Below, piece after piece: positions 49,588-54,155 of a DNA stretch of 64,000 nucleotides. The translations under genes were made by a program, and so were the position numbers. Location of the stretch: the NCBI RefSeq assembly GCF_020073745.1, contig NZ_JAIRAU010000002.1, positions 209,694 to 273,693 of the forward strand. The letters run 5' to 3'. A model generated the notes under the pieces. The model did no database searches. It was not told the origin of the DNA and worked only from the letters and a program-made list of their open reading frames with translations. The stretch comes from Nannocystis pusilla. Lineage in GTDB: Bacteria; Myxococcota_A; Polyangia; Nannocystales; Nannocystaceae. The first letter of the stretch is position 1, and every line of letters begins with the position of its first letter.

Positions 49588-50682
49588 ATGCTCTACGAGG
49601 ACCGCTACAAGCTGATTTTGGCCGCGTGCCAGGATATCCGCCGCCATCGCGAGCAGGTCGCCAAGACGGTGATTGCGAGCCAGCTCCTCGAGGCGCTGGA
49701 CGTCGATGTCCCGAGCGACGCGCTCCTGTCCCACATCGTCGCCGAGTCGCTGTTGCGGCGGATCGACCGCAACCTGCTGTCGGGGCGGAACTTGTACCTG
49801 CAAGCCGAGAAGCGGCCGCAGATCGATCTGTTCACGCTGCTGCAGCGCGCGATCCCGGCCGTGCCGCAGGGCTACGCGCTGGCCAACCAGTACCTGGTCC
49901 ACGCGATGCGCCAGTCGCCGGCGCCGACGCTGCTCGAGATCGGGATCGGCAAGGGCCTGCAGATCGTCGCCCTGCTGCGGGCGCTCGCGCGCGATCCCGG
50001 CAAGATCGAGCGGATCAAGGTGATCGCGCTCGATCCCAACCGCTCGGTCCTGAATGAGGGCGTGGCCGCGATCGACGAGGTTCGCGCCGAGCTGCCGTTC
50101 GACATCGAGATCTATCCGCTGGTCAAGCTGATCGAGGTCTGCGAGGATGCCGACTACGCGCACTTCGAGGCGCTCGCCGAGGGGAGCTTGTCGATCAACG
50201 CGGCCTACACGCTGCACCACACCACGGGCCCCGACAGCGAGTCTCGGACCAGGCTGCTGCGGCGGCTGCGGGCCCTGAAGCCGCGGGTGTTCACGCTGGT
50301 GGAGCCGAGCTCGGACCACGACACCGAGCACCTGACCCGGCGCATGCACCACTGCTGGCAACACTTCGCCACCGTGTTCGACCTGGTCGACCGCAGCGAC
50401 GCGTCGCCCGACGAGAAGTTCGCCATCAAGGAGGGGTTCTTCGGCCGCGAGGTCCGCGACATCCTCGGGACCAGCGACGCCTTCCGCTGCGAGCGCCACG
50501 AGACGCTCGAGTCGTGGCTGCTGCGGCTCAAGAAGTCGGGCTTTGTCGCCTACCCGTCGATCGACGTCGACGTCGATCTGCCGGAGTACTGCCGCTCGAC
50601 GGTCAGCTCGGGTCTGGTGCGGCTTTCGTACCGCGGCGTGCCGATCATCGCTGTGTTCGCGTTCGCGGGGGAGGGGGCATGA
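49588..50682 (+). CDS. Bacterial GRAS-domain protein (Rossmann-fold methyltransferase-like)
   Basis: GRAS-like motif order: a VHIID-like ERIKVIALD, LHHTTGPDSESR, FTLVEPSSDHDT, an RVER-like FRCERHETLESWLLRL, and a SAW-like C-terminus. Start chosen at ATG 49588; the track ORF begins at GTG 49534. Confidence 0.55.
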   Translation: MLYEDRYKLILAACQDIRRHREQVAKTVIASQLLEALDVDVPSDALLSHIVAESLLRRIDRNLLSGRNLYLQAEKRPQIDLFTLLQRAIPAVPQGYALANQYLVHAMRQSPAPTLLEIGIGKGLQIVALLRALARDPGKIERIKVIALDPNRSVLNEGVAAIDEVRAELPFDIEIYPLVKLIEVCEDADYAHFEALAEGSLSINAAYTLHHTTGPDSESRTRLLRRLRALKPRVFTLVEPSSDHDTEHLTRRMHHCWQHFATVFDLVDRSDASPDEKFAIKEGFFGREVRDILGTSDAFRCERHETLESWLLRLKKSGFVAYPSIDVDVDLPEYCRSTVSSGLVRLSYRGVPIIAVFAFAGEGA

Positions 50683-51221
50683 GCGAAGAGACCGAGGCGA
50701 GCGAGCCGGTGGTCCACGGGGCGCTGATGGCGGGCTTCGCCCAGGCCTGCGTCAACCTCAACATCGTCGCCGGGCGGCGGGCCAACGCGCTGCTGGCCGA
50801 CATCGACATGGGGCGGTGGTTCCCGCTCGCCAAGTGGATGGAGCTCGAGCGCATGGTCGGCGAGTCGTACGCCAACGTCGAGCCGATCCGGCTCAAGCTC
50901 GGCATCGAGATGATGACGCTGTGGTACCACCACGGGCCCGGCAAGATGCTGATCCACCGCGGCGCCGACTTCCTGCACTTTCAGACAGGTAGCAACGGGA
51001 TCGCCAGCGTGATCCGCGGGCCGCGCGACGTGGTCGGCTCGTTCGACCTGGCCGAGTTCGACGCCGAGCGCGGCCACGCGGTCATCCGCTCGTCGACGCC
51101 GTTCGACAAGACGATCGAGTGCGGCGTGCTCATCGGCGGGGTGATGGCGCCGGGCGACCTGCACTACGTCGACGTGACGAACGACGGCGACCTCAACCGG
51201 CTCGTGGTGGAGTTCCACTGA
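50679..51221 (+). CDS. Hypothetical protein (180 aa), coupled to the GRAS gene
   Basis: The ATG overlaps the GRAS stop as ATGA. Real-protein composition but no recognised motif. Confidence 0.5.
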   Translation: MSEETEASEPVVHGALMAGFAQACVNLNIVAGRRANALLADIDMGRWFPLAKWMELERMVGESYANVEPIRLKLGIEMMTLWYHHGPGKMLIHRGADFLHFQTGSNGIASVIRGPRDVVGSFDLAEFDAERGHAVIRSSTPFDKTIECGVLIGGVMAPGDLHYVDVTNDGDLNRLVVEFH

Positions 51222-51222
51222 G

Positions 51223-52149
51223 ATGACCCTCGACGAGATCCTCCAGGGAAAAGACCCCGATCGCATGTCCGAGCTGGCGCCGGCCGACCTGCGCAAGCTG
51301 TTCTGGATGTACAAGGGCCTGCTCAAGCGGGTCGAGCGCGACACCGCGTACTGGCAGGCGACCAACGACAACCTGCGCACCGCCTACGAGCGCCTCGACG
51401 AGCAGGAGCGCGAGCTGGCGCGCGCCTACCAGACCATCCGCCAGGACCTCGAGATCGCGCAGCAGGTGCAGCACGCGCTGCTGCCCAAGGACCACCCCGA
51501 GATGCTCGCGCGGTTCGAGTTCTCGGTCTACCACAAGCAGATGACCGAGGTCGGCGGCGACTACTACGACTTCTACCGCCTGCGCGACGGCTGCCACGCG
51601 ATCGGCGTGTTCGACATCTCCGGCCACGGCGTGTCGGCGGCGCTGATCATGGCCTACCTCAAGGCCCAGCTGGTGCAGACGATGGAGCAGGTGTCGCGCC
51701 CGCGGGAGATCGTCGAGTACCTCAACACCGCGACCGTCGGGTTCCTCCGCGAGGTCCGCCGCTACGCCACCGTCAACTTCGTCTCGTTCGGCGAGCACTC
51801 GTTCCGCTACGTGTGCGGCGGCGGCTACGGGGTACTGATCCGCGGCGGCGAGGTCCACACGTTCAACAAGGGCGACCCGTTCATCGGCCTGCGCCGCCGC
51901 GCCTACAGCGAGTACGAGCTGCCCTTCGAGACAGGTGACGTGCTGGCGCTGTACACCGACGGCCTGGTCGAGGCCCAGGACAACAGCGGCGCCGACTACA
52001 GCACGCGCCGGCTGCACGAGCTGGTGCGCACGAACTCGCACCTGCCGGCCAACGAGATCCTGCAGCGCTGCCTCGACGACTACGGCCAGTTCCGCCGCGT
52101 CGATGCCGACGACATCACCCTCATCGTGCTCCGGAGGCGGGCGGCGTGA
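51223..52149 (+). CDS. PP2C-family serine/threonine phosphatase (SpoIIE/RsbU-like) with N-terminal coiled coil
   Basis: PP2C metal-binding motifs GGDYYDF, GVFDISGHG and YTDGLVEA. 308 aa. Confidence 0.8.
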   Translation: MTLDEILQGKDPDRMSELAPADLRKLFWMYKGLLKRVERDTAYWQATNDNLRTAYERLDEQERELARAYQTIRQDLEIAQQVQHALLPKDHPEMLARFEFSVYHKQMTEVGGDYYDFYRLRDGCHAIGVFDISGHGVSAALIMAYLKAQLVQTMEQVSRPREIVEYLNTATVGFLREVRRYATVNFVSFGEHSFRYVCGGGYGVLIRGGEVHTFNKGDPFIGLRRRAYSEYELPFETGDVLALYTDGLVEAQDNSGADYSTRRLHELVRTNSHLPANEILQRCLDDYGQFRRVDADDITLIVLRRRAA

Positions 52150-52661: not shown

Positions 52662-53065
52662 ACGTCCTCACGTACGGCGAGATCATGGACGGCGGCGTCA
52701 GTGTGTTCCACTGCGTCGCGCGCGAGGACGAGGGGAACTTCTCCCTCACGTTCTCCGGCGTGGTCCGGATCGACAACCCCTACCGCTACCTGTCGCTGTT
52801 GCTGCAGGACCTGCGCGACATCCTGCCCAAGCGCGAGATCAGCCGCAGCGTGCTCGACTTCACCGAGCTCGAGTTCTGCAACTCGAACGGCTTCTACGTG
52901 ATCATGGACATCGTCGAGCTGGTCTACCTGCTGCTGCCCGGCCCGGTGCTGGTGCGTCGCCTGCAAGAGGACGACTGGCAGCAGGAGACGCTGCCCATCC
53001 TGCTCAACCTCGACGAGGAGTCGATCGCCGCCCGGACGACCTTCGAGGACGTGCGAGAGCTCTGA
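52658..53065 (+). CDS. STAS-domain protein (anti-sigma-factor antagonist-like)
   Basis: LDFTELEFCNSNGFYVIMDIV aligns with the SpoIIAA/RsbV phospho-site region DLSGVxFxDSSG. The ATG overlaps the kinase stop as ATGA. 135 aa. Confidence 0.55.
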   Translation: MNVLTYGEIMDGGVSVFHCVAREDEGNFSLTFSGVVRIDNPYRYLSLLLQDLRDILPKREISRSVLDFTELEFCNSNGFYVIMDIVELVYLLLPGPVLVRRLQEDDWQQETLPILLNLDEESIAARTTFEDVREL

Positions 53066-53066
53066 C

Positions 53067-54155
53067 ATGGTGGCCCTCCTCGAGCTGGTCGAGCCGATCG
53101 CGCTGCGCGTCGACGCCGACGGGCGCGTGACGCCGGCGTCGCCCGCGGCGGCCCGCTGGCTGGCCGCCCGCCCCGGCGCGCCCAGCCTCGGCGCGCTGTT
53201 CGGCGCCGCCTCGCCGGCGTTCCTGCGCAGCCTGGCCGAGAGCAGCGGCAAGGCGGTGCCGGAGCATCCCTGGCCGGAAGGACCTGCCGCCTGGGACCTG
53301 TCCCTCGAGCCATCCGACGCGGTGCTGGCGGTCGGGGTGGCGATCCGGCCGCCGCGCGCGCTGGCGTCGCAGCTGGCGCACGCGACCCTGCTCGACAAGA
53401 GCCTGGCGCTGGCGGTGCTGCCGCGCGAGTCGGCGGCGCCGCTCGGCGAGCGGCTCCAGCCCAAGGCGTACCGCGAGTCGACGGTGATGTTCATCGACGC
53501 CGTCCAGTTCTCGCGCCTGGCGGCCCGCGTCGACCCGGTCACCTGCCTCAAGCAGCTCGACTTCTTCTTCTCGGCCTTCGACCAGATCACCTCGGCGTTC
53601 GCGGTCGAGAAGCTGCGCACGGCCGGCGACACCTACGTGGCGGTGGCGGGGATCCCCCACCGCCGCCTGTCGCACGCGGTCGACGCGACGTTCGCGGCGC
53701 TTCGCTGCGCCCAGGTGGTCGCGTCGGGGCTGGTGCCGATGGTCGACGATTGGGACTGGAGCTTCCGCATCGGCCTGCACGCCGGTCCGTGCATCTCCGG
53801 CGTGCTCGGGGCCAAGAAGCCGGTCTACGACCTGTGGGGCGACACCGTCAGCATCGCCAGCCACGTCGAGCGCGTCGGCCAGGCCGACTCGGTGTGCGTG
53901 TCGGGGACGGTCAAGCAGCTCATCGAGCCGTTCTTCGCGCTCGAATTCCTGCAGACGACCGTCACCCGCAGCGTCGGCGAGGTCGAGGTGTACGCGGTCC
54001 GCGGGCTCCTGCCCGAGCTGCAGGCCGACGACCAGGCCGTCGTGGCCAACGCGGAGTTCCAGCAGCGCTACGAGTCGCGCTTCGCCTCGCCGTGCCCGGC
54101 CGTCGCCCTCGAGGCGCTCGGGGTCGAGCTCGGGCAAGGGCTCGACGAGTTCTGA
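53067..54155 (+). CDS. Class III adenylate/guanylate cyclase with N-terminal sensor-like domain
   Basis: Cyclase motifs VMFIDAVQFS, KLRTAGDTYVAVAG, IGLHAGPCISGVLG and YDLWGDTV. 362 aa. Confidence 0.8.
   Translation: MVALLELVEPIALRVDADGRVTPASPAAARWLAARPGAPSLGALFGAASPAFLRSLAESSGKAVPEHPWPEGPAAWDLSLEPSDAVLAVGVAIRPPRALASQLAHATLLDKSLALAVLPRESAAPLGERLQPKAYRESTVMFIDAVQFSRLAARVDPVTCLKQLDFFFSAFDQITSAFAVEKLRTAGDTYVAVAGIPHRRLSHAVDATFAALRCAQVVASGLVPMVDDWDWSFRIGLHAGPCISGVLGAKKPVYDLWGDTVSIASHVERVGQADSVCVSGTVKQLIEPFFALEFLQTTVTRSVGEVEVYAVRGLLPELQADDQAVVANAEFQQRYESRFASPCPAVALEALGVELGQGLDEF

Follow-up and report, generated by a model that had tools for sequence, protein, structure and literature searches.

Partner switches that act on an enzyme rather than on a sigma factor have already been described, one of them being SiaABCD of Pseudomonas aeruginosa. 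SiaB phosphorylates SiaC on Thr68 and SiaA removes the phosphate (PMC7278518, PMC7647112, PMC8457831), and SiaC in its unphosphorylated form activates SiaD, a diguanylate cyclase, by binding to the stalk of that enzyme (PMC7278518, PMC8457831). Two-hybrid and pull-down experiments detected an interaction of SiaB with SiaC and none with SiaD (PMC7278518). HsbR-HsbA-HsbD and BgrUWV, like SiaABCD, are partner switches acting on diguanylate cyclases (PMC7278518, PMC7647112), and the phosphorylation state of a STAS protein directly controls an enzyme in HsbR-HsbA-HsbD, in BgrU/W/V and in Anabaena HenR/All4160 (PMC7647112; bioRxiv 10.64898/2026.04.08.717354). The pair Slr1658/Slr1659 of Synechocystis sp. 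PCC 6803 is known from genetics only, namely from pgr5 de-repression and recovery from iron starvation (Zer et al. 2018, as cited in PMC7555055 and PMC6525291). We describe here a six-gene operon of Nannocystis pusilla, at positions 49588-54155 (+) of a 64,000-nucleotide window (the whole stretch of DNA analyzed; assembly GCF_020073745.1, contig NZ_JAIRAU010000002.1), that resembles SiaABCD in its central genes and is headed by a bacterial GRAS-domain protein.

The operon encodes, in order, a GRAS protein (g1), a small protein of a new domain type (g2), a PP2C phosphatase (g3), a GHKL putative serine kinase (g4), a STAS protein (g5) and a class III nucleotidyl cyclase (g6). It shares with SiaABCD the gene order phosphatase, kinase, STAS-like protein and nucleotide cyclase, and SiaA, SiaB and SiaC are the closest or near-closest solved relatives of g3, g4 and g5. 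In both, a second-messenger cyclase is the output (here a proposed one) and there is no sigma factor. The two differ at either end. SiaD is a GGDEF diguanylate cyclase, whereas g6 belongs to class III and is optional across the family, and the window operon is without a GGDEF gene; the input here is a separate g2 sensor together with the GRAS protein. HsbR-HsbA-HsbD, BgrU/W/V and HenR/All4160 likewise differ, having diguanylate cyclases or a polysaccharide-synthesis enzyme as targets and no GRAS protein, g2 domain or class III cyclase. Full-text literature searches returned nothing on DUF6272, and they brought up neither a switch linked to GRAS nor a class III cyclase as the target of a partner switch. 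As far as these searches reach, the new parts are the input (GRAS protein, g2 domain and adaptor) and the type of output enzyme. An earlier note on this DNA had called the whole architecture apparently undescribed; within the reach of the searches this applies to the GRAS-plus-sensor input and to a class III cyclase in the position of SiaD, but a cyclase as output was already known from SiaABCD, HsbR-HsbA-HsbD and BgrUWV.

On balance, we favor the view that the operon is a SiaABC-type phospho-switch with a new two-protein input, for which the adjacent class III cyclase is the probable target. In the proposed chain, g2, a stand-alone cytoplasmic sensor domain, would receive the signal, and the GRAS protein would be its dedicated partner, methylating or binding a small-molecule cue or methylating g2 itself. 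g2 would act on the N-terminal helical adaptor of g3 and so set phosphatase activity, while g4 would phosphorylate g5 on Ser76 and g3 would remove the phosphate. Unphosphorylated g5 would bind the target, most likely the cyclase where one follows g5, with contact perhaps made through the helical linker that precedes the catalytic domain, as SiaC does on the stalk of SiaD. In most lineages the outcome would be changed synthesis of cyclic AMP (cAMP). What was observed is the identity of each gene, the folds and conserved motifs of the products, the synteny and the fusions between domains; the interactions and enzymatic steps of the proposal are, one and all, predictions from these observations.

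The GRAS protein and its probable partner, a predicted sensor domain

Synteny was surveyed in genome loci encoding a GRAS protein at least ~40% identical to g1, which comprised 56 loci from Myxococcota (including Nannocystis) and Spirochaetota with a locus G+C of 0.34 to 0.73. g1 and g2 are adjacent in all 56, and g3, g4 and g5 follow in the same order wherever the contig continues; the gene order also recurs in metagenome loci. The g1-g5 arrangement does not exist by chance.

The product of g1 (49588-50682, +; 364 amino acids by open reading frame (ORF) listing and translation) matches the Pfam GRAS model PF03514 with E=9.5e-34 (117.3 bits, where the cut-off is 27), and the alignment runs over residues 17-323 and profile positions 12-328 of 374. 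The same domain is present in all 111 g1 homologues found. When a family profile of 40 homologues was compared with the PDB, plant GRAS proteins were matched exclusively, among them the DELLA protein RGA (7e-32), SCL3, SCARECROW, SCL7, NSP1/2 and SHORT-ROOT (SHR), and the single sequence likewise matched plant GRAS proteins alone. Generic methyltransferase families of Pfam reached E=0.18 at best. The earlier note had named a bacterial GRAS protein as the first gene product, to be abandoned if profile searches placed it in an ordinary S-adenosylmethionine (SAM) methyltransferase family without GRAS relationship; the searches placed it squarely among GRAS proteins. Identity is 99% to the protein of N. 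radixulma and 93-95% to those of other cultured Nannocystis species, and an alternative GTG start at 49567 would give 371 amino acids, the length of the closest database homologue.

Conservation within the family was read from the 40 aligned sequences. Rossmann motif I, E117-I-G119-x-G121-x-G123-x-Q125, is invariant at residues 117 (Glu or Asp), 119, 121, 123 and 125. In the pair D149-P150 the proline is invariant and residue 149 is Asp or Glu in 40/40, and the C-terminal R300-x-E-R-H-E305...W310 is also invariant. Judged by sequence, g1 is a genuine GRAS protein with the predicted Rossmann methyltransferase fold and an intact SAM-binding signature. Conservation of this motif speaks in favor of enzymatic activity or, failing that, of SAM binding. 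Bacterial GRAS proteins were reportedly predicted to be methyltransferases by Zhang, Iyer and Aravind in 2012. Plant members such as DELLA/RGA, SCARECROW and SCL3 share with g1 the domain itself and the C-terminal R-x-ERHE...W. In contrast to them, g1 is a 364-amino-acid single-domain protein within a signaling operon, and it keeps the Rossmann GxGxG SAM motif at which the aligned RGA sequence differs. An attempt to tell which bacterial GRAS clade stands nearer to plants was given up, since the scores to plant GRAS structures were too alike (53.9 bits for g1 and 48.8 bits for Paenibacillus).

The 180-residue product of g2 (50679-51221, +; ORF listing and translation) was left as an unknown protein in the earlier note, and searches of Pfam, NCBIfam and PDB sequences, carried out with the single sequence, a 28-member profile and a wider 34-member profile, gave nothing credible as to family or fold. 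A full scan of 1.84 billion representative proteins was more informative, yielding 172 relatives. The whole g2 domain is held by 105 of them, 82 of which are longer, fused proteins with the g2 domain at the N-terminus in 81. Almost none of the fused proteins has a membrane segment by a crude hydrophobicity scan. Pfam domains in 81 fused relatives were HATPase_c (37), HisKA (31), GGDEF (24), Response_reg (20), Pkinase (4) and Guanylate_cyc (2), and this wide range of output partners identifies g2 as a signaling input domain. By homology, then, g2 appears to be a stand-alone copy of a cytoplasmic input (sensor) domain for which no Pfam or NCBIfam model exists. It is the most probable sensor of the operon and likely the direct input to the phosphatase.

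The connection to the phosphatase is seen in residues 1-85 of g3 (51223-51477, +), a conserved helical adaptor motif with the aligned consensus KLFxKYKGLLKxxERDxAFWxATNxNLxxAYxKLD. This segment is homologous, start to start, to the first 80-90 residues of the proteins encoded after stand-alone g2, with domain E-values of 2e-16 to 6e-11 (2e-16 to 5e-8 overall, including the linkers in g2 fusions). In the fused proteins of loci L105 and L109, a g3-type adaptor motif comes directly after the g2 domain. A metagenome scan with eight g2-domain sequences led to 34 loci. By Pfam, a stand-alone g2 is followed by a PAS histidine kinase in L085, L086 and L101 and by a PAS-GGDEF-EAL protein in L106 and L108; in L099, L100, L103, L104 and L113, the gene after g2 has a match to the g3 adaptor. 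The ‘g3-like’ metagenome matches had been entertained as PP2C fusions, an idea dropped when Pfam identified PAS histidine kinases and PAS-GGDEF-EAL proteins that have the N-terminal adaptor alone in common with g3. Since the adaptor follows g2 both within fusions and in next genes, the two form one unit that is split over two genes here, and this fusion-type evidence suggests that g2 acts on the N-terminus of g3.

The pairing of GRAS and g2 extends to other outputs. L108 has the order GRAS-g2-PAS-GGDEF-EAL and L106 the tandem GRAS-g2-GRAS-g2-PAS-GGDEF-EAL, and GRAS-g2 thus behaves as a cassette that is usable before other outputs. These arrangements bear on the idea that the GRAS protein is a metabolic, small-molecule methyltransferase that lies upstream by chance and outside the signaling module. 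An intact SAM-binding motif would suit such an enzyme, as would the more distant bacterial GRAS genes, which stand alone or beside unrelated genes: profile searches found no g2, g4, g5 or g6 adjacent to those with 30-36% identity (from Firmicutes, Longimicrobium, cyanobacteria, Streptomyces and an archaeon), and the Paenibacillus GRAS locus has unrelated neighbors. A chance neighbor is nevertheless hard to reconcile with strict GRAS-g2 adjacency in 56 loci of two phyla, with the 4-bp overlap of the two genes in the window, or with the recurrence of the pair before a different output protein and its duplication in L106, and no conserved biosynthetic genes were found near the module loci. We regard a purely metabolic role as very improbable, and synteny makes it the weakest of the rival explanations.

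Phosphatase, putative kinase and STAS protein

The three middle proteins correspond to the classical set of SpoIIE/SpoIIAB/SpoIIAA and RsbU/RsbW/RsbV, that is, a PP2C phosphatase, a GHKL serine kinase (putative in the case of g4) and a STAS antagonist, and the types that the earlier note had assigned to them were recovered in each case. The PP2C/SpoIIE domain of g3 (51223-52149, +; 308 amino acids by ORF listing and translation) spans residues 122-306 (51586-52140, +) and matches Pfam SpoIIE, PF07228, with E=1.5e-28. All four metal-site motifs are present (GGDYYD, FDISGHG, YTDG and DADDIT). Among solved structures, the nearest to g3 is that of the SiaA PP2C domain from P. aeruginosa (6k4e, 4e-16), and the metal-site motifs of the two align. 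The NCBIfam SiaA model scores g3 at 1.1e-19 and 70.5 bits against a cut-off of 700, short of the equivalogue level. A further difference is that SiaA, which has a PP2C-like domain, is predicted to be a membrane protein (PMC7278518), whereas g3 is soluble and carries the N-terminal adaptor.

The kinship of g4 (52146-52661, +; 171 amino acids), a SiaB/RsbW/SpoIIAB-like GHKL protein and putative serine kinase, needed a fold search. Pfam gave weak matches to HATPase_c, HATPase_c_2 and DUF6272 (E ~0.002-0.01 for HATPase_c and DUF6272, the latter also carried by some relatives of g4), and a g4 profile returned only noise from PDB sequences. The AlphaFold2 model, with a predicted local distance difference test score (pLDDT) of 91, was matched by Foldseek to SpoIIAB, RsbW and UsfX with E-values down to 7.7e-6, and the closest solved structure is P. 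aeruginosa SiaB (6kko_B). Invariant residues include E61 and N65 of the N-box, R128 and R129, and the G2 box G135-G-L-G138-L.

Pfam does not match g5 (52658-53065, +; 135 amino acids) to STAS, and its STAS nature is derived from structure comparison. Its AlphaFold2 model (pLDDT 96) has SpoIIAA in complex with SpoIIAB as the top Foldseek match (1tid and 1th8, ~2e-5), followed by TM1442, SiaC (6kko_C/D and 6k4f) and RsbV; the SpoIIAB-SpoIIAA complex 1tid thus provides matching chains for the g4 model as well as for the g5 model. The g5 model differs from the classical antagonists by an additional N-terminal sheet of three strands. Ser76 (codon 52883-52885) belongs to the invariant FCNSNGFY and is the first residue of helix 2 (residues 76-92), and the orthologue profile aligns FCNSNGF with FMDSSGL of SpoIIAA. 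The aligned position is that of Ser58, the phospho-acceptor of B. subtilis SpoIIAA. Among 46 sequences, position 76 is Ser in 45 and the phosphomimetic Asp in one. Ser76 is accordingly described here as a putative phospho-acceptor, at a position kept from SpoIIAA; the acceptor of SiaC is Thr68. The lack of a conserved phosphorylatable Ser/Thr region, which the earlier note had singled out as fatal to its proposal, is not what the alignment displays.

Family models place g4 and g5 at some distance from curated relatives. The slr1658 superfamily model (NCBIfam NF047703) matches g4 with E=1.5e-8 and 34.3 bits against 100, the slr1659 superfamily model (NF047705) matches g5 with E=2.7e-5 and 24.5 bits against 100, and each of the two models matches 28/30 orthologues. 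The NCBIfam SiaB family matches 12/30 g4 orthologues with E ~1e-5. Slr1658 and Slr1659 are also encoded by adjacent genes, as their locus numbers imply; with g4 and g5 scoring well under the curated cut-offs, the relationship is a distant one and not one of membership, and the cyanobacterial pair has no known signaling chain. The NCBIfam SiaA and SiaB scores are similarly far below the family cut-offs.

The cyclase and the points that weigh against the proposed chain

The sixth gene, g6 (53067-54155, +; 362 amino acids), encodes the class III nucleotidyl cyclase that the earlier note had recognized. Residues 131-309 (53457-53993, +) match Pfam Guanylate_cyc, PF00211, with E=4e-36 and 124.7 bits against a cut-off of 21.9, and their closest relatives in the PDB are adenylate cyclases 5, 9 and 8. 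Residues 1-130 (53067-53456, +) comprise an N-terminal domain and the helical linker (...FKExLLNILPxxIAxEL...); the sole Pfam match of the N-terminal domain, PAS_4 at E=0.09, amounts to a very weak PAS resemblance. Five spirochaete orthologues of ~278-282 amino acids (L021, L025, L029, L037 and L052) are without the ~110-residue N-terminal domain and start shortly before the helical linker, which means that docking of g5 on the cyclase, if it occurs, cannot require that domain. The cyclase lies immediately 3' of g5 in 28 of the 46 loci that have at least 1.2 kb of sequence after g5, the entry for L014 having been corrected by hand, and it does so in both phyla.

Observations at four points of the proposed chain weigh against it, and they are taken here from input to output. 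With respect to the input, g2 occurs without an upstream GRAS gene in L098, L103 and L111. Together with the distant GRAS genes that have no g2, this indicates that GRAS is not needed for g2-type signaling in general. The strict pairing seen from the GRAS side, set against the occurrence of g2 without GRAS, makes GRAS proteins of the g1 clade look like dedicated accessories of the g2 sensor. The earlier note had the GRAS protein feed the cascade from its head; the strict pairing with g2 is in keeping with an input role, one in which g1 would be the dedicated partner of g2 rather than the sole head.

The second point concerns the kinase. The G1 box DxGxG of GHKL proteins is replaced in g4 by an invariant N94-K-A (codon 52425-52427), so that the adenine-contacting Asp has become Asn and the Gly residues are gone. 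With Asn94 in place of that Asp and no GxG, neither ATP binding nor kinase activity of g4 is assured. One possibility, suggested by the invariance of Asn94, is a different nucleotide preference, e.g. for GTP, rather than lost binding. Alternatively, g4 could be a pseudokinase, in which case the switch would operate by binding only, or g5 would be phosphorylated by an unlinked kinase while g3 acted on another substrate. The degenerate box is what a pseudokinase would lead one to expect, but there is no variation in E61 (the catalytic base), in N65 (which binds Mg), in R128/R129 or in the G2 box, and a near-invariant acceptor Ser is co-inherited with an apparently active PP2C. A pseudokinase therefore seems distinctly unlikely to us.

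The third point is family membership. Both g4 and g5 fall below the curated NCBIfam cut-offs (those for Slr1658/Slr1659 and SiaB), and g5 has no Pfam STAS or DUF1987 match; the Pfam STAS and HATPase_c_2 thresholds are unreached, which, like the non-canonical G1 box, separates the pair from the classical partner switches. Those classical switches suggest another arrangement, in which g4, in the manner of RsbW, sequesters the target (the cyclase, or else a sigma factor or transcription factor whose gene is located elsewhere) and unphosphorylated g5 captures g4 and never touches the cyclase. The fold of g4 does match the anti-sigma factors SpoIIAB, RsbW and UsfX, and 18 loci have the module but no cyclase. 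On the other hand, the operon contains no gene for a sigma factor, the 56 loci have no conserved one in their vicinity (a sigma-70 family gene is found ~5 kb upstream in one locus only), and transcription factor genes are likewise not conserved beside it. Moreover, the closest solved relative of g4 is SiaB, for which two-hybrid and pull-down assays showed no interaction with SiaD, and it is SiaC that binds and activates SiaD (PMC7278518). We consider the RsbW-style arrangement unlikely.

The fourth point is the output, which is neither universal nor, in the window, canonical. No cyclase follows g5 in 18 of the 46 loci, and the genes 3' of g5 in these loci, judged by eye, are mutually unrelated (a Ser/Thr kinase, an aldehyde dehydrogenase-like and an aminotransferase-like protein among them). 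A conserved substitute for the cyclase was looked for there and discarded, the downstream translations being unlike one another by eye. In addition, three of the six catalytic residues are changed in g6, where alignment to the C1 and C2 domains of adenylate cyclase 5 gives Arg184 for Lys (53616-53618), Ser262 for Asn (53850-53852) and His266 for Arg (53862-53864); the metal-binding D144 and D188 and the substrate-binding D255 are retained. Of the earlier note's claim that the module ends in an adenylate cyclase, the part that stands is the gene order in 28 of the 46 loci; the remaining 18, and the altered catalytic site in the window, do not conform to it.

The six-residue catalytic pattern was read in 37 sequences, consisting of the window and 36 loci. 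The canonical D-K-D-D-N-R is found in 24, those of L036 and L018 among them, all of them outside Nannocystis. D-R-D-D-S-H is found in the window and all cultured Nannocystis cyclases, and cyclases from Nannocystis metagenome-assembled genomes have D-K-D-D-S-Q or D-T-D-D-S-H (the first residue was not readable in L009). All Nannocystis cyclases, and that of L045, have Ser for Asn and His or Gln for Arg. The 24 canonical orthologues imply that the ancestral gene was an ordinary adenylate cyclase and that the window copy is a conserved but catalytically suspect derivative. As a homodimer, Nannocystis g6 would be weak, inactive or altered, having lost Asn and Arg and, in cultured species, Lys as well. 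Within a heterodimer it might still provide its two metal-binding Asp residues, or it might be a partner that is regulated but has no catalytic role.

These residues raise the prospect that g6 of Nannocystis is a pseudoenzyme or one half of a heterodimer, so that the output of the operon would not be cAMP made by g6. It could then be a regulated scaffold, a nucleotide sensor or a C1-like subunit needing a separate partner to supply Lys, Asp, Asn and Arg. The contrast between D-R-D-D-S-H in the window and cultured Nannocystis and D-K-D-D-N-R in 24 others points in this direction. So does the resemblance, in the alignment, of the window motif VSIASH to the mammalian C1 motif VTLANH, as does the conservation of the protein across Nannocystis species, a sign that it is under selection. 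Like mammalian adenylate cyclase C1 domains, Nannocystis g6 has the two metal-binding Asp residues and is without the transition-state Asn and Arg; unlike them, it keeps the substrate-binding Asp and is a bacterial cyclase of the single-domain type with no complementary partner identified, and most orthologues outside Nannocystis are canonical. The retention of both metal-binding Asp residues together with the substrate-binding Asp, and the fact that no partner subunit was identified, count against this explanation. Some class III cyclases with non-canonical residues, such as Rv1900c, keep low activity, which counts against it as well. We find it plausible for Nannocystis, though we lean the other way.

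Several observations were made in the region 3' of g5 and g6. In five cyclase-less Myxococcota loci, a homologous protein of ~770 amino acids adjoins g5, encoded right after it on the + strand in L020, L028, L039 and L051 and on the - strand in L041. By eye, its N-terminal half is a Ser/Thr protein kinase and its C-terminal region is large; it may be an alternative partner or a coincidence. A PilZ-like gene (~125-150 amino acids) comes after the cyclase in 15 loci, namely those of Spirochaetota (L014, L021, L022, L025, L027, L029, L031, L037, L048, L052, L054 and L055, e.g. L055:12109-12561) together with L018, L032 and L038; in L023, which has no cyclase, it comes directly after g5. All six of the PilZ-like genes scanned match Pfam PilZ (E between 1e-4 and 1e-3), narrowly missing the gathering score. 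This places PilZ, a receptor type for cyclic di-GMP (c-di-GMP), beside a cAMP-type cyclase, and the window has no counterpart. In the Myxococcota locus L018 (the same locus as L083), a member of the MbnB/TglH/ChrH family (PF05114; L083:12890-13762) is encoded after the cyclase, along with several genes with no Pfam match, which hints at an adjacent peptide-modification cluster.

Operon limits, neighboring genes and significance

The ORF listing and translations confirm six co-directional genes at 49588-54155, and every peptide string quoted in the earlier note was found in the g1-g6 translations. The 4-bp start/stop overlaps that it had described hold for three of the five junctions, g1/g2 (ATGA), g3/g4 (GTGA) and g4/g5 (ATGA), and not for g2/g3 and g5/g6, each of which has a gap of a single base. 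A terminator-like, G+C-rich hairpin at 49312-49338 (+), with an 11-bp stem of which 10 pairs are G-C, lies 3' of the upstream gene and closes it, which indicates that g1 starts its own transcription unit. As the genes 3' of g6 are on the opposite strand, the hairpin and these genes together delimit a self-contained six-gene unit. The leader or promoter region 5' of g1 (49339-49587, +; ~250 nucleotides) was searched for a sigma-70-like site and none was found there, and an Rfam search 5' of g1 had a sole match at E=0.45, far below the gathering score. The window has a G+C content of ~71%, and long opposite-strand ORFs (e.g. 48754-50499 and 53004-54206) are shadow ORFs of the kind usual in high-G+C DNA. 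Public annotations treat the genes one by one and in generic terms (GRAS family protein, hypothetical, PP2C, ATP-binding, hypothetical or STAS, adenylate/guanylate cyclase domain protein), and for the individual genes they are correct. The products of g2 to g6, the five that were looked up, have identical counterparts in an N. pusilla assembly.

Upstream of the operon, just before the hairpin, a 174-amino-acid ORF (48772-49296, +) is conserved in Nannocystis loci only and is no part of the module elsewhere. Further upstream, the 159-amino-acid product of 47360-47839 (-) resembles by eye the tmRNA-binding protein SmpB, with the C-terminus ...KTYDKRASIKEREQKREIDRAMRERT, and its gene is kept upstream in Nannocystis loci. 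The assembly of Nannocystis exedens DSM 71 contains the module twice, in L002 (utg0) and L003 (utg4), each near a contig end. The cyclase of L003 is broken up into three ORFs, and a 250-amino-acid protein of the g5 cluster is annotated on the contig. A true duplication is less likely here than redundancy between contig ends that contain errors.

Bacterial GRAS proteins have so far been only predicted methyltransferases without biological context, and one clade of them is now tied to a signaling operon in two phyla. This provides the first testable signaling context for bacterial GRAS proteins. The g2 domain with its adaptor helix is a widespread cytoplasmic input that no Pfam or NCBIfam model covers. 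If g5 controls the cyclase as proposed, the logic of SiaABCD, in which the enzyme under STAS control makes a second messenger, would not be confined to c-di-GMP but would also cover class III (cAMP-type) cyclases. The Nannocystis cyclase is a natural experiment in which catalytic residues kept in orthologues have been lost. More tentatively, GRAS and g2 may constitute a hitherto unrecognized two-protein bacterial sensory cassette, in which the GRAS protein would make or destroy the ligand of g2 or methylate g2 in a CheR-like manner and the adaptor would lead to interchangeable outputs. Were this true, those outputs would be histidine kinases, GGDEF-EAL enzymes and a switch of the SiaABC-like kind with a cAMP cyclase, and the GRAS fold, a later acquisition of plants, would originally have served signal transduction and not metabolism.

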